Assembly: GCA_025201805.1 (NCBI GenBank)
Contig: MU619362.1
Location: forward strand, 1 to 64,000
Direction: 5' to 3'
From: Parasitella parasitica NRRL 2501
Taxonomy: Eukaryota; Fungi; Mucoromycota
DNA length: 64,000 nucleotides
How positions within the stretch are numbered: the first letter of the stretch is position 1; each line of letters starts with the position of its first letter. A program made the position numbers and the translations under genes. The notes beneath the pieces were generated by a model. It did no database searches and had not been told where the DNA came from. It saw nothing but the letters and a program-made list of their open reading frames with translations. Below, piece by piece: positions 1-57,308 of this stretch.

Positions 1-162
1 AAAAAAAAGAAGAAAGTCTAAATAAAAAACGTTGATGGTAAACCTAAGCTAATTGATTAGTACGATTATTTCAATTCACAATGTGATCACAAGTTCTGGT
101 AGACAGTTATTGCTGACATTTGTAATGCAAAGACAAAAAATGCAAAATAAAAGTGTTTATTG

Positions 163-2383
163 CTAATTTCTAGCATTAATAATTTTACAGAGCTTGTCCA
201 AAGAACAATCTTGAAGCGATATGCGCTCATTTTCGACTACTTGAGCCGCTTCTTCTAAAGAGAGATTTTTCTCTTTGGCAATCTTTTTTATCTCATTGAT
301 AATGATTAACCTCTTCGAGTAGTATTATCTCTCTAGCGTATGATTAACAATGTACAGAACAAGTGAATTAGTAAGTAATGCTTTATATTTTATGGCCCTT
401 TATATACCTTTTGATTCTTGTCTCCATTTACTACCATAAGCACTATTTAGGTCATTGATGCTTGGCTTTCCTTGACCCAAGCCTACCGACCACTCCTTCC
501 ACAAACCGAGAACATTGGACAGGTCCCGGTTAAGCTTGTACCGCTTTCTTGGATCCTCTTCGTCCTCCCCATCTTCTCTTTCCCTTCTTGTGCCTGTAAC
601 CACATTTGCAGGCTCAGCGGAAGCAGTAGCAGGGTCGGCAGCAGCAAGAACACCCCCAAATCTCTCCTCAATCTTCTCCATGAGACTTGCAGAGATTGCC
701 TCAACAAGCTCATTGTTTCCAGTGTCTCGATCTCCTACAGTTTTATACAGAGACTGTATTTGAAGAGACAGGTCTGAAATTCTTGAGTTCATCTCAGGAA
801 CAACACGCTGAATTTCTACTTCAGCAGGAGGCGTGGCGTTGTTCATGCTTCGATGAAGCTGTTCAGAGAAGGAAGCAAACACACTGGACTGAAAGATGCT
901 ACTATTGAACATCTCCAGCTGTTTCAAGAGCACAGCATCTTCGAGAATGATGGGCTGCAATTCGACCAGAAGCGTCAAGAAGCCTTCACCGCAAATGGTT
1001 TGAATCGACGTGTCATCCTGCATCCTTTGCTGCCATTCTTCAACCCAAGAAAAAACCTTCTGTTGAAGTGACAACGGAGGGGTGACAAGAGCACGAGGGA
1101 GCCAAAAGCAGCCTTTTTCTTCAGGAAATCCCTGAATGACTCTGATGGCGGTTCTGGGGAGGCGTGTCAAATAGCTATTTTCCATGCTCTCAGAGTTCCA
1201 CCTTCCAACTCGTCTAATGTGGTCATGAAAAAGACCTGCCATCTCGGCCTCCCGAGCTCCAGCCTGACGCCCAGAATGGGTTTTCTTGACGCTATTGACA
1301 CCCACAGCGGCAAAGGCTTTGTTGATGGAACTGAGCTGCGTGTTGTAACAAATGGACTTATCAGCGGCTCGTCCTCTTGTGAGCTTGGTGTTGAACCAAT
1401 TCTCATTTGCTGAAAAATCAGGGAATGCTTCTCCCTTGACGTGGAATCGATGAAAAAGGTAGAAGCCAACGGCTCCGAAAGCGCAGATCTGCACATTCTT
1501 GTGCCTGATAACACCACTGTAAAGCCTATGATGTTCCTGGTTAGTTTTGCCTACGGTGATCATCATGACAAACACAGGACAGCGTGTTGCTCCCTCATCC
1601 TTAAATTCAAAAGAGAATATATGATTGAGATTTGTATCTCTCAAACTGTCCCCTTCTTGCATCATCATATGATTCAACAGAACAATCATTCTATCTCTGA
1701 GTGCGTCCCCTGCCATCTTCTTTCTACTCAGATAATAGTCAGTAACTTGAACGAGTTGCTCCGCATTATATCCATCTTGGATGGATCCAACTCCAGGGTC
1801 AACAAAGTTTTGAGATTGACGAGCTGCAGAACAAAGACGCTTCAAGGACCTCTCGTAACTCTTGAGTTTCGCCACGAGGATGCTTCAAATCCATAGTTTC
1901 TTGGTACTCTACTTTCTGCTTTTTATAGAGGTCAACAAGGGCTTTAATATGCATTTTCAAAGTCTCATGACTGTATCTCATGCAGACAGTAGTGCTTGTA
2001 CCGTCAGCATTATTGAAAACTAATTGCATGCCTCTGTCAAATAATTCTTTGACATATCGAACAATCTTCATTTCAGACACAATGTCATTAGGATAATGTT
2101 TCTCAACGCACCATTCCTACAGGCAAAATTACAAATAATTTATATTAAACCTCTGTGCCTTCAAGCAAAATATTGCGTTATATACTTTAAATTTTTCTTG
2201 CTTGGAAAGGTACGCATAGATGGTGTTGACAGGTCTGACGCTCTCTACAACGCTGCGAGTTTCATAAGCTAATGAAGCTTCTACAGCAGCATTTTCCATA
2301 TTATGGCGAAGTTGCTGATCCATGCTGGAAGCCTTATGGCTATATTCGGCGTGATTGCTGGATGAATTACTGGAATGATTCAT
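163..2383 (-). mobile_element. Crypton-type (CryptonF) tyrosine-recombinase transposon gene, Ndc10-domain-II-like core plus C-terminal GCR1_C; disrupted
   Basis: YR motifs GKTNQ, KKTHSGR (HxxR), GRWN..MENSYL (W..Y); GCR1_C-like LWKEWSVGL..PSINDLNSAYGSKWR. Introns near 2117-2180 and 335-407. Frameshift near 1875; the last exon has an in-frame TAA and a frameshift. Confidence 0.85.
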
Positions 2384-3297
2384 TATAAAAGTTTCATTCT
2401 ATGAACCCTGCCCTACGCCGGAGAAATTTGCGGCTGCAGTTTGCCTTTAACTAGACACAGTTTCGAGTGGGAAGCTGCCTTTTCCTCAAACACAAGGAAT
2501 AACAAAAGGAAGGCTTATTTTTTTTTTTTTGCATGGGAGCCGAGTCTCCAGTTTTTATTCAAAATCCTTTAGTTGAGGGAAAGAAAAGACCGGATATGGT
2601 CGGGTATTTGAGTGACTTCCGCAAGTGTCTCAACAAAGAAAGGTCATAAACTTTCTAAAGAAAAAGAAAAGCTTCTGGAGAAATCAGAGCCAAAAAAAAT
2701 AAGTCTCTGGAGAAATCAGAGCGAAAAATGGTTTCCTGCGAAATTTTGACATGCGCGAAAGACAAGGTATTTATTGATTATCATTGCGAATACATTTTTA
2801 AATGCAAATAGCAACTTCTTTGTTGGCCCGAGAGATGTTTGAAAACATGATTTCTGCCATTTGCTTCAATATTTGGTTCAGGGAAATGTTACAGAGTATG
2901 GTAATAGTACTGGAATCATCGTCGAAGAGTTGCAAATCTTCTACCCATATCGCAATCAGAATATTCTTATGCTTCGTTCAATGAACGACTCATATTTCCA
3001 GTTTTGCATTGGTTTTTGCACAATCTGATGAACTGCTTTGAAAGTGATGCAGTTTCTGGGGAATCCATCACTGCGTAGCCGATTGTTTGGAAAATTCGTG
3101 AGGCAATCATAAAAGGGTTGTCATGATCACTAGTCTTCTTGACACCTTCAAAATCACAGTATGTGAATACTAGCCGTTTGATCTCGCTACGCTCGATGAC
3201 GGCGTCGTCCAGCGGGAAGATAAGCAATCAAGCATTGATAATGGAGAAGTTTACATAATAGTCAGGGGGAGGTATCCCCCTTGAACCCCCCTCTACT

Positions 3298-4080
3298 GAA
3301 TATTCGCCTCTAGGGAAAAGCAAGACATAATGAAGAGGCATGTGGGCAGCATGCGTTTCATTAATTCTTTTGAAAAGACCCTGAGCATTGGAGGAGGAGC
3401 TATTTCGATATGCAATCAAAATATCTCTGAAACTCCTGTCAGCATCTTCGTTGGGTATAACAGCCGCATCCTCGTTGACAGTTGGCAGATTTTGGGTGCG
3501 TCTGTCTTCACCAACAATTAGCTCCATTCGCATCTGAAGGTTGAGCCTGATGTGAGCATCCTCGTTGATACCATTTTGGGCTTGTCGCTCCTCTTCCTCT
3601 CTCAAAACTTCGTGAGCGTGCTTGTATATTTGGACGAACACGAACTGGAGTGATTCCACCTCTGATTTCTTCTTGTCTCTCTCGTTGAAGTTGCTCAGGG
3701 GTGGCGTCAGTACCAAATGAGGTAAACGCAAACAAAGTGTTGTACCGTCTCATACAGTATGCTGCAAGAAATGCGCTGAGCGTGAGTGACTTCCGTTGAT
3801 CAATCCATTCAAAGACTTAGGCGGTTCTTGCAGTAAGGGCAATAAAGCTTTTCCTTTTTTACAGCAAGCATAGAAGCGATTGTCGTTTCTCGTTTGATTG
3901 GTAGGTCTTTCTGCTTCCCAATGCAAGGCACCACAGCTATCACATTCAACATTCATCGTCCCCAGATCAGAGATTCGCATTCTTGCCAATTCAGAAACAA
4001 AAGCTGCGGGTGCTCTGGGTGCTGCCGGTGCTGTCGGCCTTGACGCAGCTCTATGTCTGGCGTAGTTTCGGGCACGTTCC
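3298..4080 (-). mobile_element. Helitron Rep/helicase N-terminal remnant (frameshifted, truncated)
   Basis: LGTMNVEC..CGALHW.AE...FYACCKKGKALLP, RRYNTLFAFTSFG, NLPTVNE.AAVIP and PLHYVLLFPRGEY are typical Helitron N-terminal motifs, spread over several frames. Confidence 0.85.
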
Positions 4081-5711
4081 TAAAAAAAAAAAAAAAAAAA
4101 AGTTTGCTCAATTTACAGTGTTATTCGGCAAACAATTTTTATTTACACGACATGAATCACATTTTCGGAACGAAGAGGTTTCAGGAAGACCAATTTTGCA
4201 GCTTGTCCAAATTCTAGTCTGAACAGGAGGCATGCTGATAGTAGAAGAAAGTAAATGTTATTATATGATTGTACATGGCTGAAATGGACGTGTCAAGGCC
4301 AGTTGGCTCGATGCCCGACAGAGATAATACGTTGATGGCTGATGAAAATGTGATCGAAGTTGTCGCGCTTGCCCAACCAAGTAATATAATTTTAATGATC
4401 TTGTCAATGTAAATTTTTGTTGTTTGTGGTGATGTAACAAAAGAAAATGATGACGGACCAACTTCGGGATCTCTTTCACAATCCAAACGCAAACTTGATG
4501 TGACAAGAGCAGAACAAGATTGGGTTCCACTGATGAGCTTCCGACCATCTCGTGTGCTTTTGACGCACGACCAGACATTTGGATATAGTGAAGGCGATGG
4601 AGGAAGGGTAAATCTTCGGGAGTGGATATTTCATGATGAATATCGACGTTTTTTGTGCGACCATACACTTCAATGGTATTCAACAAGATCGCTTCACCGC
4701 TTATCGTATTCAATAAGATGGCACCAGCTACACTAAAAATAATTATGTTGACAGAATTACAAATAAATTGAACAGCTCTTCCGATTGGAAGGAAGTTCTA
4801 TTAAGGAGAGTTTACATTTTCACCATACTATTTTGTAACTGAAGAAAATATGAAATAATCTGTCTTTTATTATAATTAAGTGTGCTAATGACACCAGGTA
4901 CAGTTCAATACTTTGTTTTGTCTTTTCCTTAGAATTCATGATTTTTTTCTACTTCTTTTCATAACATGTTTCAAACTGAAATAACTTTTAAACGTAGTGT
5001 ATCGACTCATCGTGGAGGGGCAATGGAAGAGCAGATGATTAGAGGACTCAGAGACAGACAAGCAGACGGGACAGATAAAATGTAAAACGTCGGTGAGGAA
5101 TATTTCCCAAGGAAAAAATCTGGCAGGGTGTAATATTTGAGTTTTTGCGGCTGACTTTTTTCATTGCTGATATTAAAGAAGCTCTTCTGTCTCTGGATTT
5201 TTCCAACATCTGGTATTGCCAATTTGAAGGAATAACTCCCTACAGAATTCTCCTCATCTCTCTCTCTCTCAAATCTGGCTTGCTCATATGATATTTATCT
5301 TTGACTAGACCACCATTCATCCCACAGCGATACTGGCCACTATCTGATCCAATGTTTGTCAGACCATTGAGGAGGATAATTGCCATTCCCTCCTGTAGTC
5401 CTTTATTCTTTTATCTGTTTTCAATTTTGTTTCTTAATTTTTTATCTTTTCATTTCTTATATCAATTATCCTTTAAGTTGCAACCACCTCTCCCCTATGA
5501 CTATTTACTCTTAGGGTACGTGGCTCAATCAATAAACAATTTTTTTTTTAAAAAAAAAAAGTTTTAATGAAATTTCTATATTATAAAGCATTAATTTAGA
5601 GCATAGGCGTGTTACAATACTTTCCCAATTTTTTTCTGTAAATCTTTCGTCGACCGGCCTCAGCAAGCACTCCCCATAGCTTTTTTGCCGCTCCATTTAA
5701 ACAGTCGGCAA

Positions 5712-40156: not shown

Positions 40157-42511
40157 ATAGATTTGAACTAGTATATTAAATTACTATGCATACACACCCC
40201 AATGTAATGAGTTATGATGAATAATAAAACAGTATTTATGAGATTTTCTCATGTGAACCGCGCATTAAAATACAAGTATATTCTACTTTTATGGTTTTCA
40301 TTCATGGCAGTGTCATAGAATGACAAAAATGCTTGTCATTCAAGTCTCGCTGTCTACTTTATGAACACATTCTGCAGCCGTATATTCATTCTAAACTATC
40401 GCAATACGCTTGCTACCAAGTTTGTTGTGAAATAAAAGGTCTTGATTTAGCATATTGACGTAGATGTGAATTAGCAGTATCCTACTTATTCGAAATTAGC
40501 TTGGTAGACTTAAATTTATGGATCAAATAATACACTTCTACTATTTGAAAAGCTGTCTTATCCGTCTTTGATTTGAATAAATGATCTAATGCAGCAAATA
40601 ATGCTGCAAGAGTACTAGAACCAGTAGCAAATAGTGCCTTATTTTAATTCGTCAGTTTAAGGATTTGTTAGGGACAAACTGCTTTGCACATTGCTTTTGA
40701 TACACATATCGCCCAATGGAAATCAAATTCCTATGGGATAGTCCTAATTGTGTATAAGTTTAAGACAGGCTTTATTTTGCTTTGTATTAAAACGTATATG
40801 CGGATATATGTAGTTTTTATATGAAAATCACTGGTTTCGGCTTATAACTTCCTATATTTATATCAACTTTTTTTATCGATAGTACGAATATACTTATAAG
40901 ATAACGCTGTGTTATCCAGGTTAGACCTTGCTTCTATGGTTCATTTAGCAGAAGCTATGACGAAATGTTTGTTAATTATGAAAATCAAAACTGTTTGGAA
41001 GACGGTCAAGGTAAAACAGTTGATAAGCAAGTGATGCTCAGATAGCCCTGGTTATGCCTATATAAATCAAACTTTAAATAGATTTTATTTTGCTCTTCAT
41101 TAAAGCGTGCCCACGTTTATGTATAATTTTTGTAGCGATTCACATTACATTGATGTCTCATTTTTATATAAAATATCCAATTAGTATAAATAGGCCTAAC
41201 TTTTACCAGATATTGGAACCTTTGTGAAAACAACCATCTAATTCTAGTTCTGCTTGTTCTTGTTCTTGTTCTTGTTCTATTTAATACTATAATTAAAACT
41301 TGGATTAGATCTTACTACTCTAGTCGATCTGCTCCTTCTGATCAACATATATCATCATAAAGGAGTTTATCACCATAAACTTACACTATACATTGCTGTC
41401 AATTACTACTTGTCTGGTAATATCCACAATGTATATTATATAGTAAGCAATGGCCAAAATAGTAATCTTAGCAATTAGAAATGCCACCTTGACAATAAAA
41501 TAATACATCATTCTACCCTTTTGCCGATAAATTATTTTACTCCATCACATTTCAAAGATAGTTTTGTATACATGCTTTTTTTTTTTGCCAATACAAAAAA
41601 TTTCATATAAACGCACGCATATTTTGATAAAGAGAAAAGCAAGATAATTTTTGTATTTGGCTGATAGAAACGCAATTGCTATCTGGCGAGTATCATAGAG
41701 TTGGTAATTACACTAGACTGAATATATAGAGATTATACAAAAAAAAATATGATGATGAGGCTGTGATATACACACACACTGGCTACATGTGTAGTACCAA
41801 TTCTTACAAGCACTACACGCATTCTGGTTTACTACGGATCAGCAGTATACAACATTTCATATCAAATTGCCCTCACTGAACAATATCGTAATATCTCTCA
41901 CAGTTGCCATGGTAATGCCAAGATAAGGCAGAGGGCTTTGCCACGTCAAGGCATAGGCCAACTATTTAGTATGTCACATCTGCCCATGTTCCTGGGTCAA
42001 TCTTGAGAATGAAACATATCACACTAAGTGATAGTGTCATTTGTATACAAATAATGGTGTTGTATCCGATATTTTCTATCTCATCAAAGTGGGATCTACA
42101 GACTCTGAAGAATCGATTATGTATCAAGCTTCCCGTTTTTAAAACCTTGAGCATGACCATCCATGTACACATTGAGCTGCTGATTGATTGAAGAAAACAT
42201 CAGGAATAAATTGTTTTGCTATATTTTTATAGGGTAGGATACCAGATTTTATGACTATATTGATGCTTTCATATTCAAATGAATGTACTGTAAACTGATT
42301 ACTTTTTGTGATTGTGCAAATAAATAAGGAAAGGGAAGGATTTGAGCGTGCGGTTGTAATTCAAAAAATGAAAATTTTGTGCGATTAACTTAAAAATATT
42401 CTATGTCAAAAGGGATGGAAGGGGATATAACGAAGGATATAGGGGAAAATTTGGGTATCATAGATTCCTTTTTTTGTGAGGTTTTCGCTCTCTTTTTTTT
42501 TTTCAGGTATT

Positions 42512-48716: not shown

Positions 48717-49256
48717 CCAAAACTTGATATTGTATCATATCCAACACCGCCATCAACTTCTTTTTCTCAATTAGATTAGTTAAATGCCTTGCCATCCAAA
48801 TATTGTATTACAATTCTTGGATTTTTATCATCATACAATGTACAACCCAACATTTACACTCGGGTATCTTTTTATTCATGGAATCAACATACGAGAATAG
48901 TTTTTTTATTTTTATTTTTACAATATGAGGCAATATATCCCAAGAAAGTAACTCTCAACTCAAATAAATGTCACTAAATGTTATCATCTGCAAATCTTTG
49001 TCGCTCCCAATGGCCCGTTTTTCGTACTAGAGAACCATAAACATGATAGCATGGCGAGCATCAACACCATAGACTCTGTAGGTCTTTCGTGACTAACAAC
49101 GTGACATCATGGTCAAAAATTTTCTAGTTTGTAAACTGAAAAGCAAACCATCGAAGTTGATAGAACTCCTTCTCCATTGTAATCTATACTTTACAGTAAG
49201 TATCAAAATCATGCTCAAAAGTGAAAAGAAACAGAAGTTTAATGCCACGATCAGTC

Positions 49257-50588
49257 ATGCCACCCAAGAAGGCTGTCAAGGAAGAAAAGACCATGCTGGG
49301 CCGCCCCTCCAACAACTTGAAGATTGGTGTGGTTGGTCTCCCCAATGTCGGTAAATCCACCTTCTTCAACGCCCTCACAAATGCTTCTGCTGCTGCCGAG
49401 AACTATCCTTTCTGTACCATTGGTATGTACTGGAGACAGTTATACTTCTAGATCCTAACCAAAACCGCATTCTTGTTTTTGACATCTGCCAGACCCTGAG
49501 GAGTCTCGTGTTGCTGTTCCTGATAAGCGTTTCAACTGGTTGTGTGAGCATTACAAGCCTGCCAAAGAAATCCCTGCTTATGTGAGTATTCGCCGTTGAC
49601 TTTTGCATAGTCATGTTAATTCATCGATCCTTTATGTAAATAGTTGACTGTTATTGATATTGCCGGGCTTGTAAAGGGTGCTTCCTCTGGCGCTGGCTTG
49701 GGTAACGCTTTTTTGTCGCACATCAAAGCTGTTGATGCGATTTTCCATGTTGTTCGTGCTTTTGATGAGTCCGATGTTATTCATGTTGAAGGTGAATTGG
49801 ATCCTATTCGTGATTTAGAAATCATTCGTGAGGAATTGCGTTTGAAAGATGAAGAATTCCTCACAAAGCAATCTGCCGAATTGAATGCTGCTGTTCGTCG
49901 TGTTGGTAACGGTGGCAATGCTAACGATAAAGCTAAAAAGGAGGAGGCTGCTACCATTGAAAAGGTGCTAGAATATGTTAAAGAAGGTAACGATGTTCGT
50001 CATGGTACTTGGACCAACAAAGAAGTCGATGTTATCAACAACTTCCATCTTATCACTGCTAAACCTGTTATATATCTTGCCAATCTGTCTGAAAAGGACT
50101 ACATTCGCAAGAAGAATAAGTGGCTTCCCAAGATCAAGGAATGGATCGATAAGAAATCTGCTGGTGACCCTATGATTCCTTATTCAGCTGCCTTTGAATA
50201 CCGCCTCACACTCGCTACTAGTGAAGAAGAAAAAAAGGCTATCGAGGCCGAAGCTAAATCTGCCTTACCCAATATCATCATTAAGGGGTACGCTGCTCTT
50301 AACCTGATTTACTATTTTACTGGTGGTCCTGACGAAGTCAGAGCTTGGACTGTACGTAAAAATACTAAAGCTCCTGGTGCTGCAGGCGTCATTCACTCCG
50401 ATTTTGAACGTGGTTTCATCATGGCTGAAATTATGAAATTCGATGATTTGAAGGAGTTGGGCTCTGACAATGCAGTTAAAGCTGGTGGCAAGTATATGCA
50501 GAAGGGTAAGGACTATGTTGTTGAAGATGGTGACATTATTTTCTTCAAGTTTAACGTTACCGCTCCTGCTGCTGGAAAGAAGAAGTAG
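49257..50588 (+). CDS. OLA1: Obg-like ATPase OLA1/YchF; 3 exons
   Basis: [61 protein letters not shown]. Confidence 0.97.
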
Positions 50589-52963
50589 ACGATATATTTT
50601 TACCAAATAAAATATAAAATATACATTTCAACATTGTAACTTGGGGGATTTGATATTACATTTACTTTTCGTAGTGTGTCACTTGGCGATATCATATGTT
50701 TAGGTCTGAATCGTACGTACGACTCATTCATTCGCTATGAATGCATCTTGGCGAATTAATTTAAACACAAGGTCAAGACGATACTTGATAGGTACGATAA
50801 TGTTGCAACGCATGTGCGTAAGATGCAATTTTTGGCCTTTTCCTCCCAGATAATTTTTTTTGAAAACATGAATGTAGCAATTGAAGTTGTAGCTCAGGTG
50901 ATAATTTAGAAGAATAAGACGATAAAAGAACTATAGGGTATTTGATTTTTTGATCATTACATTATGTTGTATTGATGAGGGTAACAATCAGAGCTCAGAA
51001 GGGTAAAGGAGGGGGGCGGAGGCCGCAAGCGAATATATTTTTTTTGTAGTTAATATTTTATTTTATTCAAATATTATTTATAGAGGGACACATCGCGGAG
51101 TGGTGGACCTCGAACAACGAAAAAGACTAGCTGATATATGACTATGTTTGTGAAGGGAGCAGTTTGTCAATGTGACAAACTGTCCGAGAGAGAAAGTGGG
51201 ATATGGAGGAGGAAGAGAGTGGTGCCAGATTTTGTCGGCCGTGAAGCCAGTACAAGTTCCACATTTGCCACAAGGTCGTAGAGATGACAGCGATATAGCG
51301 GGAATGATCTTGGATAAAACGTGGGAGATGGAGATAGCGCACGGTGCCATAGATAAGTTCAACAGTCAAGGGATAGTTGGCATAGTAATATCTTTTGAAT
51401 ATTATGGCTAGCCAAGAGTTGCAGATCAAAGTTTTGATCTCGCTTCAGAAGCATGGAACAAGTCCAAAAATAGAAAAGGATCAATATTTTAGAAGTTGCT
51501 TTTTATGAAAAGACACAGGTGTTATGTCGTATGTATTTCTTATATGTAAATTTGTGTTTTCTGTTGATCACTTTAAATGATTATGGATATAAATCTATAT
51601 TATATTGGATTTTTCATCCAGGATGTCTTGGTAGCAAAGATTGAGAAAGAGAGAACCAATGGCAGATTTGACGAGTGTTGGAGTTGCTTCTATTTGTTCT
51701 TGATATTGGATTACGTCTTCTTAAAGCCATGCTAGCCTGGTCTTGATGATTGTGATCTTTGTGGAATATTCTGTGTAATTTAGAGTTCATATTCATAATA
51801 ATTACAGAGATTCTTTTTATGCGTTGACTCACTTAATATTGATCTATAACATGTCTATAATTATAAAAATAAAACTATTATTGTATATAACTTTGGATAT
51901 ACACATCACTTAGTGGATCAAGTGATAGCTCAGGTAGCCCTGATCATGCTTGTGAATCTGGCTGAAACAATCATATGATTGTTTGTACAAAATGGTACAG
52001 ACATTTTCAAGTATTTCTTGTATGAAAATCGTTGTTTCCTGCCAATATCTTTTTTCTATGGGTAAAAATGCTTTTATTCGAAAAAGCTGAGTTGTCGCTA
52101 TGTTTGTGATAGAGTACAACTATCTAGTAGTAAAAGGGTAGAATGATGTACTATGTTAATGTCAAGTTGGGATTTCTAATTGCTGATATTGCTATCTTCT
52201 GGACCATTATTTACTATTCAATAAACGTGGATATTACTGGACAGTAGTAATTGACAGCAATGTGATTTATCAGAATGAGAAATTATTCAAATAAAACGGT
52301 TGTGAATTAATCAGGTGAAGATCTCGTTTATTACATGGAAAAAATGATGGTTTATATACTAGTGAATCTAAGTGGACTGATGGGAGGATAAGATACAAGT
52401 GTGAGACATGGTGTGATTTAGAGAATGGAACGATATGATGTGAATTACTGGCAGTCTTTCACACATCATATTGAATTAGTAAAGCAGATCTTAGTTCTTG
52501 ACTAAGATCCTGAGAATAAAGTATTAATAATAAGAATTATACCATTAATATTATACATTTAAAGACGATTGTACAACTTGTACTCCACATTAATCAAACA
52601 CAGCTTACTGCTTTCCCATGAAGCTTAATTTAATCAAGATCAAGTTATTATATTAGTAACTTGAATTCACTATATTTTACTTTACTATAAATAAGATGAA
52701 GTGCAAGGAGCTAACCAGAACTTCACTTACATTTTAACTTTAATAAACCAAGAAGAGTTATAATTGTATTTTTCTAAGCTTTTTTTAATTTTTATAGCAC
52801 GATAGATCGTATCTATTGTCCATGAACATGTCATTGTTATAAATAAGGAACATGATCCATTGGGACATGTTCCTGAATTGTGTTCAGGATTGAGTTTACT
52901 TGAGTTTGACTTCCGGTTGGGAAATTGACATATTACTCTGTTTCAAATCAAGAAGGTTATTAC

Positions 52964-53241
52964 TGTAAGTAACACAGATCTGAGCACCAGGATAAAGGTT
53001 AAAACACTTTCAGAAGATCAAAGACGTGTAGCCCTTGCTGTATAACCTCAAATCGTACCCTGTCAAGTAGATTGTCACTGTGAACTAGTCTTGTCAATTA
53101 GTAATCTAAATAAGTGACCATAAATTCATGTAGCTGTAAAAAGTATAAATAGCAGATGCAATTTCGATCTTAAATAAAGTATCTATTTAAGCTTCCGTAT
53201 CTTGTAAACATTTGGTTTTTATTATCTTTTTTGACCAAACA
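52964..53241 (+). mobile_element. LTR-like sequence (TG...CA, 278 bp), copy 1
   Basis: Begins tgtaag and ends aaca; contains tataaatag and aataaa; preceded by purine-rich aagaagg; inverted homolog at 53927-54201. Confidence 0.65.
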
Positions 53242-53755
53242 TCTCTAATACCGTAATTGCTGAACCTCATGGCTCTCGGGTAGACAACGATTAAAACGTT
53301 ACAAATCAAATCGGAGTTCAAAATAACAAAATTTAAACACCGAATGCATTGATGAATTACATTATTGTATTCTTCCAGCAATACCAAAAAAACATGCAGT
53401 AAAAACAACAAATTTGGTCGACACTTATGTATCAATCGCTCATTATTTTTGTCAACCTTACAATTGTTGTGTTGTATCCATATAAAGGCTACATATGTCA
53501 TATCTAACTTAGTCATAATGCACGGATCATGATATTAATTGTTGGTAATTCTTTTACAAATAAGGAATAAGCTACAAGTTGTAATTGGACCTCTTGCAAG
53601 GTTCCAGGCTTATTCAAAGAATACATCTAGATCAGATCGCGGGATGTCGGGAAGACATCCTACCCAATCTTCTCTTTAATGTAAAATAGAAAGATAGGTC
53701 TGTCCTGGAAATGCTGTGATTTAATAAGGTTTGACACTTCTTGTCAAACATCAGA

Positions 53756-53895
53756 TGTTATGTGGATAAACATTGATTGGGATATATTTTAGTATAAATA
53801 GAGATCATATCTTATGTCAATAAAAGTCTTCAGTTTTGTATCTGGTTTTATTCAGAAAGTCTTTATTACTTTATACAAATCTTATTTACATAACA
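53756..53895 (+). mobile_element. Short LTR-like remnant of a different family
   Basis: 8-bp inverted termini tgttatgt...acataaca; tataaatag then aataaa. No target-site duplication seen. Confidence 0.4.
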
Positions 53896-53926
53896 TTACG
53901 CTGCGCCCTTTGACACTGGCACAACA

Positions 53927-54201
53927 TGTTGGATCAAAAAGATAATAAAAAAACCAAAGGTTAACGAGATACGAAAACTAAAGATACTTTATTTAAGATC
54001 GAAATTGCATCTGCTATTTATACTTTTTACAACTACATTAATTTATGGTGACTTATTTAGATTACTAATTGACAAGACTAGTTCACAGTGACAATCTACT
54101 TGACAGGGTACGATATGAGGTTATACAGCAAGGGCTACACACGTCTTTGATCTGACAGAGCCTTAACCTTTATCCTGGTGCTCAGATCTGTGTTACTTAC
54201 A
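53927..54201 (-). mobile_element. LTR-like sequence, copy 2 (inverted relative to copy 1)
   Basis: Reverse complement aligns along the length of 52964-53241; homology extends about 28 bp outward (52936 and 54229). Confidence 0.65.
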
Positions 54202-55008
54202 GGAATAACCTTCTTGATTTGAAACAGAGACTTTATTCTCCAATTTACACAAGCGTATCACATCACATCATTGGACAATCTTCAATCTTCAATTGAAGTA
54301 CATTGCCATGATCTCCTATCTATAATTATGGCAGATCAACAATCTCTTCCTTGTCTGGTACGGCACTATATTTAGGCAATGTATACAAACACTTTACATT
54401 TTTACAAAAAGCAAGTGTAATATTGTCGGTCTCAAGTATACCGCGCCGGCCGGTCGTCTCAATATATTGGTCGGTCATATCTTCAGCGACAAAGTACCGA
54501 CTGGGTAGATTCGTCGGTCTCATTTCTGCCCACTCGGTATAACTCTCGGTCTTATCGTACCGAGGAAAATATTTAAACACCGAAACACGTAAACTTTTCA
54601 AGGCTGGAAATATAATTTACTTTAATTGTTGTATAGCACTGTATGATATATGTAGACGAAAAAAATAAAATTTTCTCCTACTCAGATGGCAATTAGCAGA
54701 GAATATTCTTATGTTTGTTTTTCGCTGCTGTGTTTATTTTATTCAGAGAAATGGGCTTAAGTCTATTCGGTAGTGACCTAGTCGCAAGACTTTTTCGCTA
54801 CAGTATAATCTAGGCAGTCTCTGCCCTAGAGTGAAGATTTGGGTAACAACAGGTGAAAGTACAAGTGGGGGCCGTTGCAGTGCAACTTCGTTTATTGTCG
54901 TCGCACTCCGTAGCTTTTTGAAATATATAGGGGGGGGGAGAGCGGGTTCGCTCTGTTCTTTTTCATCTGTATATCTTTCCAGATAAAATGTCTCCTTAAT
55001 CATTTAGT

Positions 55009-55136
55009 TACCTGGTTGATCCTGCCAGTAGTCATTTGCTTGTCTCAAGGATATTAAGCCATAATGCATGTCTAAAAGTATAAATAAATTTACAATGTGA
55101 AACTGCAAATGGCCCAATCAATTACGATATCTACGT
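55009..55136 (+). pseudogene. Degenerate 5' fragment of 18S rRNA
   Basis: TACCTGGTTGATCCTGCCAGTAGTCAT.TGCTTGTCTCAA..ATTAAGCCAT..GCATGTCTAA..GTATAA..TGTGAAACTGC.AATGGC, with small indels. The rest of the 18S gene is absent. Confidence 0.95.
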
Positions 55137-55145
55137 AACCTAGCG

Positions 55146-56060
55146 CTATAAATGAGGAGCAGCGTCAACAGAGTGATAGTCAAAAGACAACGACATCAGT
55201 TTGTGGTCAGATCCCAGGGACAAATCAGAGCAAATACTAATTTTTGGGGATGAAAGAGATAAAGATGAGGTACCCAGAGAGGCAGAAGACAATGACGCTA
55301 CATTCGTAATGTAGTAATCGACAATGCTACTTACATTCTGCCCACGACGACGATCCTCTAGAGTAGGTGTGCCGTGGGCTAACTGGCAGTTCAGAACATT
55401 TAACTCGTTGTCAGCACAGTATTCTTGCAAAAGGTTGCCACGGGAATTGGTGGCATAATCACCAACAAATGCACCCATTCTAGCGTTAAGATCACCGCAG
55501 ATAATAGTATCGTGATCCAGAGGGATCGCATTCAAGATAGCAGAGACCTCAGCTGTATAGAGACCAGCCTGTTCAGGCGGTATATACAGGCAGATGAGCC
55601 GAAGCTCACGACCCAGTTGAATCCCAAGTGCGAATTCATGCAAGGCAGAGGGCAGAGGTGTTTGGAACGCGGTAAGAGGGCAAGAGGGGTTGATCAGGCA
55701 AGAAATGCCTCTTGAGCCTCGACCGCCACCAGCGACAGGAATTCCAGGCAAGTGGAATTGCTGCCAGGTTGTGGGTATATGGACCGGAAGACGATGTAGC
55801 CATGTTTCCGTAATAAAGAGAACTGAAAAGGATTGGCAGTATCGGAGGACATCATCAATTGTTGTGTCTCTAAGACCGCGAGCGTTCCAGAGACCAATTG
55901 TGAGTGGGGTGAGGGAGGCGCTATTAATGATGGTGGCCGAAAGGCCGGGAGGAGTTGTAGGATTATTGTTATTAAGGAATGTAGTTGGAGTAGTAGTAGT
56001 TGTAGCAGTGATGTTGGGAGACATGGTTGGGTTATAATGATTGAGTTCACACTCAATCAT
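55146..56060 (-). CDS. LINE ORF2 apurinic-like endonuclease domain; ORF stops just after the domain
   Basis: IGLWNARGL, FITETW, CLYIPP, ICGDLNAR, SIVDYY, SDHKL: all conserved APE motifs present. Confidence 0.92.
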   Translation of the reverse strand: MIECELNHYNPTMSPNITATTTTTPTTFLNNNNPTTPPGLSATIINSASLTPLTIGLWNARGLRDTTIDDVLRYCQSFSVLFITETWLHRLPVHIPTTWQQFHLPGIPVAGGGRGSRGISCLINPSCPLTAFQTPLPSALHEFALGIQLGRELRLICLYIPPEQAGLYTAEVSAILNAIPLDHDTIICGDLNARMGAFVGDYATNSRGNLLQEYCADNELNVLNCQLAHGTPTLEDRRRGQNVSSIVDYYITNVASLSSASLGTSSLSLSSPKISICSDLSLGSDHKLMSLSFDYHSVDAAPHL

Positions 56061-56983
56061 TATAACATTTCCACTTCGGAGTCATGCATGGCAGCATCGC
56101 CATCCACGGGGCGACGGTAGCCAAAGAGACCCTCCTCAGGGGCCAAGGCTTCAATGTCTTCAGAGGTAATCCAACCTGCAGTCTGAAAGTAAGCAGCGAC
56201 AGAGGCAAAGAGACGGGAACGGCGAGATGCCAAGTAACGGAGGGACTGTGTGCAGCGCTTGATCTGCAACTCAAAGGCAATATCCTCGCGCTTTGAGATT
56301 GAGAGCTCACGGTACTTGGGATCAGCAACGTGCTGCGGGTCAACAGGGTCAAAGTTGGCCACAACTGCAACTTTGTTCTTGGACAACAGGTCCAGAAGGG
56401 TTTCCTTGTATTGGACATGGATCAGAATGCCAATAACGTTGCGAGCGGGGAAGGTAACATCAATGATGCGAGATGCCTCTGCACCGATGAGGTGCAAGTT
56501 GTTGCGAACTTCAGTTCTGGTGAAGCGGCGAGAACGGTTGATATAAAGGCATTCATAGCCCTTAGGTCCGTCTGCTTGGGCATTAAAGCCACGGGTAATA
56601 GCCTGACGGTGCTTTTCAGTCACCTCAGAGGGAGCTTTGATCTTTCTTGATCTGGGCTTCTTCTGGACAATTTCAGTCCAAGTGGAGGTGGTCTTGGGGG
56701 CGCCAGTTGCTGCCTTGCTGTGCTGCGGCTGCTGATTGGTTGCAAAGGAAGCTGGGTTATGTTTGACAGCTGAAGGGGAAGCAGTAAGATCGGCAATCTG
56801 TTGACGAAGACTGGCATTTTCTTGAGTCAAAGAAAAATTTTTGTTTTTCAGATCTAAAATGGCACTTTTAAGAGTGTTCAACTCTTCCAGGGCGGTACGG
56901 TGAACAGAAATATCCTTCTGCATACTGATGACTAACGTCTGCAAATCTAGTTGCGACATAAGAGTGGATGGTTCTGGCTCCAT
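56060..56983 (-). CDS. LINE ORF1 (N-terminal coiled coil; Mucorales-type ORF1)
   Basis: Heptad-rich N-terminus; RRFTRTEVRNNL..IGAEASRIIDVTFPARNVIGILIHVQY..FDPVDPQHVADPKY; directly upstream of the APE ORF. Confidence 0.85.
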   Translation of the reverse strand: MEPEPSTLMSQLDLQTLVISMQKDISVHRTALEELNTLKSAILDLKNKNFSLTQENASLRQQIADLTASPSAVKHNPASFATNQQPQHSKAATGAPKTTSTWTEIVQKKPRSRKIKAPSEVTEKHRQAITRGFNAQADGPKGYECLYINRSRRFTRTEVRNNLHLIGAEASRIIDVTFPARNVIGILIHVQYKETLLDLLSKNKVAVVANFDPVDPQHVADPKYRELSISKREDIAFELQIKRCTQSLRYLASRRSRLFASVAAYFQTAGWITSEDIEALAPEEGLFGYRRPVDGDAAMHDSEVEML

Positions 56984-57235
56984 GGTCTGTTTACCGGTTG
57001 CTAGATGATCGAGTGAAAAAATATTTGCGGTGTTTTTGGGGTTTTTTGTAAAACAGGTAAATACTTGATCAATCGTTTTGAAAGTTGAACAGAATATACT
57101 TTAAGATATTAACACTTAATGTATATTCTATTGACGGTTGTTGCTTTGGCTGTTTACTGCTATGGATTTCCTTGTCTAATATTAATATCACGTGTACCTG
57201 AATTCTGAGGTCAAAACGTAATAAAAAAAAAAAAT

Positions 57236-57308
57236 GGGGATGTAGCTCAAATGGTAGAGCGCTCGCTTAGCATGCGAGAGGCACTGGGATCGACGCCCAG
57301 CTTCTCCA
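57236..57308 (+). tRNA. tRNA-Ala (anticodon AGC)
   Basis: Cloverleaf GGGGATGTAGCTCAAATGGTAGAGC..CTCGC-TTAGCAT-GCGAG..GGGATCGACGCCCAGCTTCTCCA; G3:U70 alanine identity pair; one U6-U67 mismatch. Confidence 0.95.

Follow-up and report, generated by a model that had tools for sequence, protein, structure and literature searches.

A truncated LINE next to a tRNA-Ala gene in Parasitella parasitica and evidence for tRNA-gene targeting by its Mucoromycota relatives

The stretch analysed here, referred to as the window, comprises 64,000 nucleotides (nt), positions 1 to 64,000 of contig MU619362.1 (assembly GCA_025201805.1) of the fungus Parasitella parasitica NRRL 2501. Between positions 55146 and 57308 it holds a dead, 3'-truncated copy of a multi-copy Mucoromycota long interspersed nuclear element (LINE) of the apurinic/apyrimidinic endonuclease (APE) type, with its 5' end no more than 43 bp away from a tRNA-Ala gene. 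The tRNA-Ala(AGC) gene (57236..57308, plus strand), the probable target, is the sole tRNA gene of the window (ARAGORN; Rfam 54.4 bits) and is intact, with a T run after it. The element lies head-to-head with it, and the ATG of its first open reading frame (ORF1) is separated from the +1 position of the tRNA by 252 bp (56984-57235). The coordinates agree with the arrangement described in the initial annotation, in which the 5' end of the element faces the tRNA and transcription points away from it. The copy is flanked by a YchF/Ola1 gene ending at 50588 and by an RGS-domain gene starting from ~58050.

ORF1 (56060..56983, minus strand; ORF call, homologs and AlphaFold2) encodes 307 amino acids (aa). 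The AlphaFold2 model has an N-terminal coiled coil (residues 11-68), an RRM-like beta-alpha-beta-beta-alpha domain (residues ~143-202) and a helical C-terminal tail. Close homologs occur in Parasitella and Mucor velutinosus (9 matches), the profile search retrieved 773 clusters at E<=0.001, and the Atlas neighbours are unnamed Mucoromycota proteins; the Pfam search of ORF1 gave no family beyond coiled-coil noise. Fold searches with the whole ORF1 were filled by coiled coils. The RRM-type fold matches were weak and generic (best Z 5.5, root-mean-square deviation 3.7, 78 aligned), which may reflect a common arrangement only, and L1 ORF1p was not among the fold matches listed for ORF1, C-terminal domain included. 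The ORF1 plan of the L1 clade (coiled coil, RRM and C-terminal domain) fits the model, although the RRM matches are generic (Z<=5.5). A profile comparison between ORF1 and the endonuclease found nothing. The stop codon of ORF1 and the start codon of ORF2 overlap in a TAATG motif (56058..56062, minus strand, read from the sequence), and a TAATG or ATGA stop-start overlap is present in 8 of the 9 related ORF1-ORF2 junctions examined. The silkworm element SART1 uses coupled reinitiation at such stop-start overlaps, and the TAATG overlap likely serves coupled termination-reinitiation.

The ORF2 remnant (55146..56060, minus strand; delimited by Pfam and the end of homology) starts with an ATG at 56060 and its frame is open to 55146. 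It encodes a complete APE endonuclease (PF14529, E 7.6e-11; PF03372, E 3.3e-07), with the motifs WNARG, ITETW, YIPP, GDLNAR, IVDY and SDH in the translation, and this N-terminal position of the endonuclease in ORF2 places the element among the APE-type retrotransposons that lack long terminal repeats (non-LTR). The remnant is 84% identical to the start of two APE-reverse transcriptase (RT) proteins, P0010 and P0011 (1259-1530 aa; one from M. velutinosus), and has further matches in Rhizopus, Phycomyces and Cokeromyces. Its homology to the full-length proteins stops at 55158-55170 and no RT was found anywhere in the window; thus, the window copy is 3'-truncated and dead. RVT_1 is present in the relatives at 84% endonuclease identity, and the best solved matches of their RT are the RTs of R2 and L1. 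No Pfam match to RNase H was obtained in any of the six ORF2 proteins scanned; P0041, one of the six, and the L003 piece stop short of the C end. The domains ascribed to the Mucorales element Grem-LINE1 include an ORF1 zinc knuckle of the CCHC type and a zf-RVT downstream of the RT; Pfam matched neither, in ORF1 and in the ORF2 of the relatives, respectively. Three pieces of this LINE family in the annotation of M. velutinosus (P0005, P0191 and P0193) bear the host-gene names msh6, glutamate synthase and dihydrosphingosine phosphate lyase, which are likely misannotations.

The element stops, and rDNA-derived sequence begins, within a break region at 55116..55158 (end of homology and Rfam). The degenerate rDNA piece that adjoins the break (54848..55115, plus strand; Rfam and depth) is fused to it in the opposite orientation to the element. 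An 18S rRNA 5' fragment starts from 55009 (Rfam SSU_rRNA_eukarya, 61.4 bits, E 3e-16), and the stretch before this start, of which 54848-54979 shows high depth and loose contig ends, is likely the 5' external transcribed spacer. A blastn comparison of the rDNA-like piece with phage gave a single 32-bp chance match.

The gap between ORF1 and the tRNA gene is mostly or wholly the 5' untranslated region (UTR) of the element (56984..57235, minus strand; run contigs and depth), which is multi-copy to at least 57192 and has its 5' end in 57193-57235. The public contigs of 4 of the 16 listed runs were placed on 49000-57241, an interval that covers only 6 nt of the tRNA, and uncovered parts carry no weight as evidence. 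In run X3, where the single-copy depth is 34.3, one of contigs 19 and 20 is near-identical to the window (depth 231.5) and the other ~82% identical (depth 258.2). These two subfamily contigs, corresponding to ~7 copies each and ~14 in total, cover the UTR and both end at 57192. Thus, the repeat reaches at least to a point 43 bp from the tRNA +1, and the shared end point suggests that the two contigs merge there into a common path toward the tRNA. The leftover depth in the last bin of X3 fits such a path to ~57224, a rough figure as overlapping contig depths add up. In run X13, from a related species, contig 11 (~6-fold depth) extends 107 nt beyond 57125, which corresponds to ~57232 if colinear. 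The true 5' end is likely at 57235, where the sequence reads as an A followed by a pyrimidine run like the starts of the relatives. The 5' end is no further than 43 bp from the tRNA, and probably no further than ~13 bp, and the earlier expectation that the element must end close to the tRNA is borne out. X11 and X13 were considered as empty-site strains and rejected; both represent a related species with ~85-90% identity over YchF, and no empty site was seen in them.

Relatives of the element were collected with an endonuclease alignment (A3) from a metagenome scan and from genome contigs, yielding 17 loci. L015-L017 (24-28% identity, no ORF1 match) were dropped before counting, and in the 14 loci left ORF1 is present in 11 (12 copies), giving 11 scannable upstream segments. 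ORF1 is absent upstream in L007, L010 and L011, L008 starts inside ORF1, L005 begins within the UTR, and L018 duplicates L001. The endonucleases of the relatives are 39-67% identical to that of the window copy. The window's own subfamily was not represented among the matches of the endonuclease scan, the best of which reached 67% over 52 aa, and a scan of viral contigs with the ORF1 and endonuclease alignments yielded no relatives. L001, the sole genome-contig locus, is a fungal-type contig that was binned with bacterial metagenome sequence, i.e. contamination, and this bin holds no second copy of the element.

Inspection of the upstream segments showed the element beginning at a distance of 0 bp from the +1 of a tRNA in 7 of the 11, the neighbouring sequence being a whole tRNA-Ile gene in two cases and an 18-nt tRNA 5' stub in five. 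These junctions come from 6 loci, which represent several samples and no fewer than three sublineages of ORF1. The whole tRNA genes (2 of the 17 loci, L003 and L013) are both tRNA-Ile(AAT), in antisense orientation and directly before the element. In L003, the tRNA-Ile(AAT) gene (37-109, minus strand) is followed by an intact 4.85-kb element (110-4961) with an ORF1 of 401 aa and an ORF2 whose frame stays open between 1479 and a point past 4800. An exact 19-nt repeat, consisting of tRNA nt 18 to 1 plus one A, flanks this element on both sides (92-110 = 4962-4980), and beyond the far copy another member of the family begins with its 5' end. The ~7 + 7 copies in X3 and the 19-nt duplication in L003 show a multi-copy, dispersed family with target-site duplication. 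In L013, the element likewise starts 0 bp from its tRNA-Ile gene. L001, L002, L012 and L014 show, in this order, an AT-rich tail with TTT at its end, the start of a tRNA as an 18-nt stub in antisense, and an A plus a pyrimidine run; the stubs carry G at +1, T8 and the A box, and the parent gene is not on the contig. The tail in L002 has a 17-nt motif in common with the 3' UTR of the first element in L003 and thus represents the end of a previous element. The first 14 nt of the element are identical in L001, L012 and L013 behind three different tRNA starts, indicating that the 5' end is fixed 0 bp from +1. The 5' UTRs of the relatives (145-212 bp from the ORF1 ATG to the element start) are close in length to the 252 bp of the window. 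An A box of the TRGCTYAR class is present in all 7 junctions and in the tRNA of the window, although the scan admitted other classes. The arrangement of G(+1) and an antisense A box followed by an A and a pyrimidine run occurs in 7 of 11 segments against 0.11 expected (300 dinucleotide shuffles each), the A plus pyrimidine-run criterion having been picked after inspection of the data. The 3' UTRs in L002 (60-115), L003 (4900-4961) and L009 (780-840) have a hairpin-like motif in common, which is possibly an RNA signal for ORF2, followed by AATAAA and no poly(A) tail.

Together, these junctions make tRNA-gene targeting by the wider LINE family well supported. For the window's subfamily, we consider it probable that insertion occurs by cutting inside tRNA genes, with tRNA nt 1-18 duplicated and the gene left whole. 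The first 18 nt of the tRNA-Ala gene (57236..57253, plus strand), which include the A box, would by comparison with L003 be the left copy of the target-site duplication. The initial proposal of tRNA-gene targeting in this orientation is thereby sustained by the 7 of 11 upstream segments and by the window end within 43 bp; its model, a TRE5-A-like insertion ~50 bp upstream, does not hold for the relatives, which start at 0 bp and whose one complete insertion duplicates tRNA nt 1-18.

Several observations weigh against extending this geometry to the window. A T run beside the tRNA could be native tRNA flank, making the gap ~13 bp. Further copies of the window's subfamily did not come with their flanks in the contigs examined, and none was observed next to a tRNA. 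The far stub is absent, as no second copy of tRNA nt 1-18 with <=4 mismatches occurs in the window, which is however expected if it was lost together with the RT half. The ORF1 trees (a quick tree for a 43-row set and a careful tree on 18 rows) place the window's subfamily in its own well-supported group, which contains no locus of known flank, and the tRNA-linked loci in at least three neighbouring sublineages. In the approximately unbiased (AU) test, a clade of the tRNA-linked loci that leaves out the window is not rejected (p 0.226), so the trees do not establish a nesting of the window among them. Among the relatives, the generic A-box motif is weak evidence when taken by itself (present in 7 of 11 segments, with 3.5 expected), and the target duplication is seen on both sides only once, in L003. 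L004 has a similar A-pyrimidine start, but the 19 bases preceding it are not a stub. One distant family (L006, L007 and L009, 40-42% identity), which occupies the longest branch of the tree, has tandem junctions without a stub. Its head-to-tail arrays (L006:120-200, L007:4300-4360 and L009:820-880) show a short variable junction, and an Rfam search at the L006-family junction found no other RNA polymerase III (Pol III) gene.

An unlikely alternative is that the element behaves as TRE5 and NLTR-B do, with ORF1 tethered to TFIIIB, insertion 13-42 bp upstream and the tRNA gene untouched. According to the cited passages, TRE5 elements have the same orientation (PMC5911963), and the directly shown shared sequence of the window ends at 57192, 43 bp from +1 and near the TRE5 range of 38-54 bp. 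However, all 7 tRNA-linked junctions in the relatives are at 0 bp, and both the depth arithmetic and the X13 contig carry the repeat to ~57224-57232. Chance or passive accumulation, in which a LINE with no target preference came to lie among piled-up repeats upstream of the tRNA and was tolerated, is still less probable. The region 51038-55115 is indeed a pile of unrelated repeats, and one related family is without stubs. The 'other LINE' families of M. lusitanicus are genome-wide in the cited part of the source (bioRxiv 10.1101/2022.12.01.518749), yet tRNA genes are dispersed too. Assuming 191-274 tRNA genes (the counts in PMC7928374 Table 1) in ~33 Mb, a 5' end would fall within 42 bp upstream of a tRNA in this orientation with p = 1.2-1.7e-4 per copy, or ~0.002 expected per genome for 14 copies. 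This figure alone is weak, since the locus was chosen for its tRNA adjacency, and the argument rests on the relatives, where the 0-bp geometry is fixed across the 6 loci. That the stubs are tRNA-derived pieces which the element RNA brings along (by read-through or end capture), pairing or recombination with tRNA genes guiding the insertion, is very improbable: 5 of the 7 junctions do have a stub without its parent gene on the contig, and the 3' ends of the elements are T-ended rather than poly(A), so that plain poly(A)-T priming leaves the site unexplained, but the L003 stub matches the adjacent gene at 19 of 19 positions while differing from the tRNA-Ile of L013 at 3 of 18, and the stubs vary between loci, even between the related elements L001 and L012. 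Taking insertion inside tRNA genes, the TFIIIB tether and captured stubs jointly, it is highly probable that the window copy is a product of tRNA-gene targeting.

Under insertion inside the tRNA gene, the mechanism can be outlined with standard target-primed reverse transcription. The duplication of tRNA nt 1-18 would place the first nick after nt 17-18 and the second cut at +1/-1. The endonuclease would nick the sense strand of the tRNA gene in the D loop, the nicked 3' end would prime reverse transcription of the element RNA, and the second cut would follow at +1/-1. The structure expected afterwards reads [whole tRNA]<-[element 5'...3']-[18-nt stub]-[old flank], in which the left duplicate would stay in the whole tRNA gene and the 5' end of the element would replace the upstream flank only. 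New insertions at the intact gene would displace older ones outward, generating head-to-tail arrays with stub spacers as in L003. Closest-cluster members in M. velutinosus with neighbouring locus tags (007211/007216, 006897/006901, 012100/012103 and 008069/008075) hint at tandem arrays in the window's own subfamily. In the window, the RT half and the far stub would have been lost later in a rearrangement that left the rDNA fragment at the break. As for site recognition, we lean toward an endonuclease that would read the sequence directly (an A box of the TRGCTYAR class), since the junctions have such A boxes and the cut would lie inside the gene; a TFIIIB/TFIIIC tether is the less favoured but still sizeable possibility. 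In the cited passages of Kojima and Jurka (PMC3706591), tethered elements land near their targets and sequence readers inside them.

Comparisons with known systems, as far as the cited passages describe them, showed partial similarities only. TRE5 elements lie ~44-54 bp upstream of tRNA genes in antisense orientation, and their ORF1 binds TFIIIB (PMC5911963, PMC5006619). TRE5-A/B/C of Dictyostelium discoideum and NLTR-B of Polysphondylium pallidum resemble the elements described here as two-ORF APE-RT elements located 5' of tRNA genes, in opposite orientation and at many isoacceptors. However, TRE5 elements insert upstream with a gap, whereas the relatives here start at 0 bp, duplicate tRNA nt 1-18 and have a fungal host; the orientation is that of TRE5, but the distance is 0 bp in all 7 junctions instead of ~40-54 bp. 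NLTR-B has an RNase H, unlike the ORF2 proteins scanned here. Dp_NLTR-A of Dictyostelium purpureum, located 2-6 bp upstream of the tRNA (PMC5006619), is similar as an APE-type non-LTR element nearly touching the tRNA +1. It differs in having an RNase H, and the cited passages give no tRNA duplication or orientation for it. Dada-tY, -tK, -tN, -tR and -tS and the Perkinsus Dada have their insertion site within tRNA genes, in the A box (TAGCTC/TGGCGC class, nt 8-13), and occur in tandem (PMC8869645, PMC3706591). However, Dada elements are DDE DNA transposons that disrupt the gene and make duplications of 6-7 bp, whereas here the element is a retrotransposon and the 18-nt duplication restores the gene. 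NeSL-1_TV (tRNA-Pro), LIN15_SM (tRNA-Arg), LIN25_SM (tRNA-Glu) and the Tx1-clade element Dewa (tRNA-Leu spacer) are sequence-specific non-LTR elements found at tRNA genes (PMC4640811, PMC3706591). The NeSL/LIN group is related to restriction-like-endonuclease elements and each of its members keeps to one tRNA type, Dewa targets a spacer, and none of them is fungal.

In M. lusitanicus, only Grem-LINE1 is clustered (pericentric), and the other LINEs are cosmopolitan (bioRxiv 10.1101/2022.12.01.518749). Grem-LINE1 occupies pericentric, gene-free regions, whereas the window copy lies between the YchF/Ola1 and RGS-domain genes. The cited text on these two groups of Mucorales non-LTR elements gives no tRNA link, nor do the cited mentions of Mucorales LINEs in PMC7011435 and PMC7928374. 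The 'other LINE' group of M. lusitanicus (n=79) may include the family of the window. Among the matches listed by full-text literature searches there was no tRNA-targeted Mucoromycota LINE and none that duplicates the tRNA start; an existing database name (e.g. in Repbase) is possible. In its features the window element works like a tRNA-targeted LINE but departs from TRE5 in distance, and from the NLTR elements and Grem-LINE1 in the characters compared above.

The remaining repeats of the region lie between the YchF/Ola1 gene and the rDNA piece, with one partner further away. In the related species (X11 and X13) the contigs carrying YchF break off 15-17 nt past 50601 (50601-50620), indicating that a repeat begins directly after the gene there too. 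The sequence at 51038-51450 (minus strand) resembles a LINE 3' end, rich in A and oriented the same way but from a different LINE, and a 4.9-kb contig of X11 begins there; it was considered as the lost 3' end of the window element and rejected, with no tblastn match to the C-terminus of the relatives' ORF2. The segment 52936-54229 has long inverted arms (159 nt, 97%; 79 nt, 94%) around ~800 bp and, in X3 and X5, a depth that is several hundredfold that of single-copy sequence, and is likely a high-copy element resembling a miniature inverted-repeat transposable element. A 94-nt repeat at 41456-41549 and 52105-52198 is inverted and 81% complementary.

Known tRNA-targeting retroelements settle beside the gene via Pol III factors (Ty3, TRE5) or break one multicopy gene type. 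The balance tips slightly toward a large Mucoromycota LINE lineage that would read the A box across isoacceptors, nick the D loop and rebuild the gene through the 18-nt duplication, which would be the first APE-type tRNA-internal targeting in fungi. If so, it would represent a third solution, cutting inside many tRNA types and restoring the gene by the element's own duplication. This would be a self-repairing safe-harbour strategy, in which only the upstream flank of the tRNA is swapped and elements are stacked in stub-spaced arrays. A gene-sparing, site-specific LINE is of interest as a gene-insertion tool, and the host group is genetically tractable, allowing a direct test of whether an APE endonuclease reads a degenerate promoter box. 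The 5' flanks of Mucorales tRNA genes would then be predicted to be often element-derived, and such targeting may explain the spread of the 'other LINE' group in Mucor genomes.

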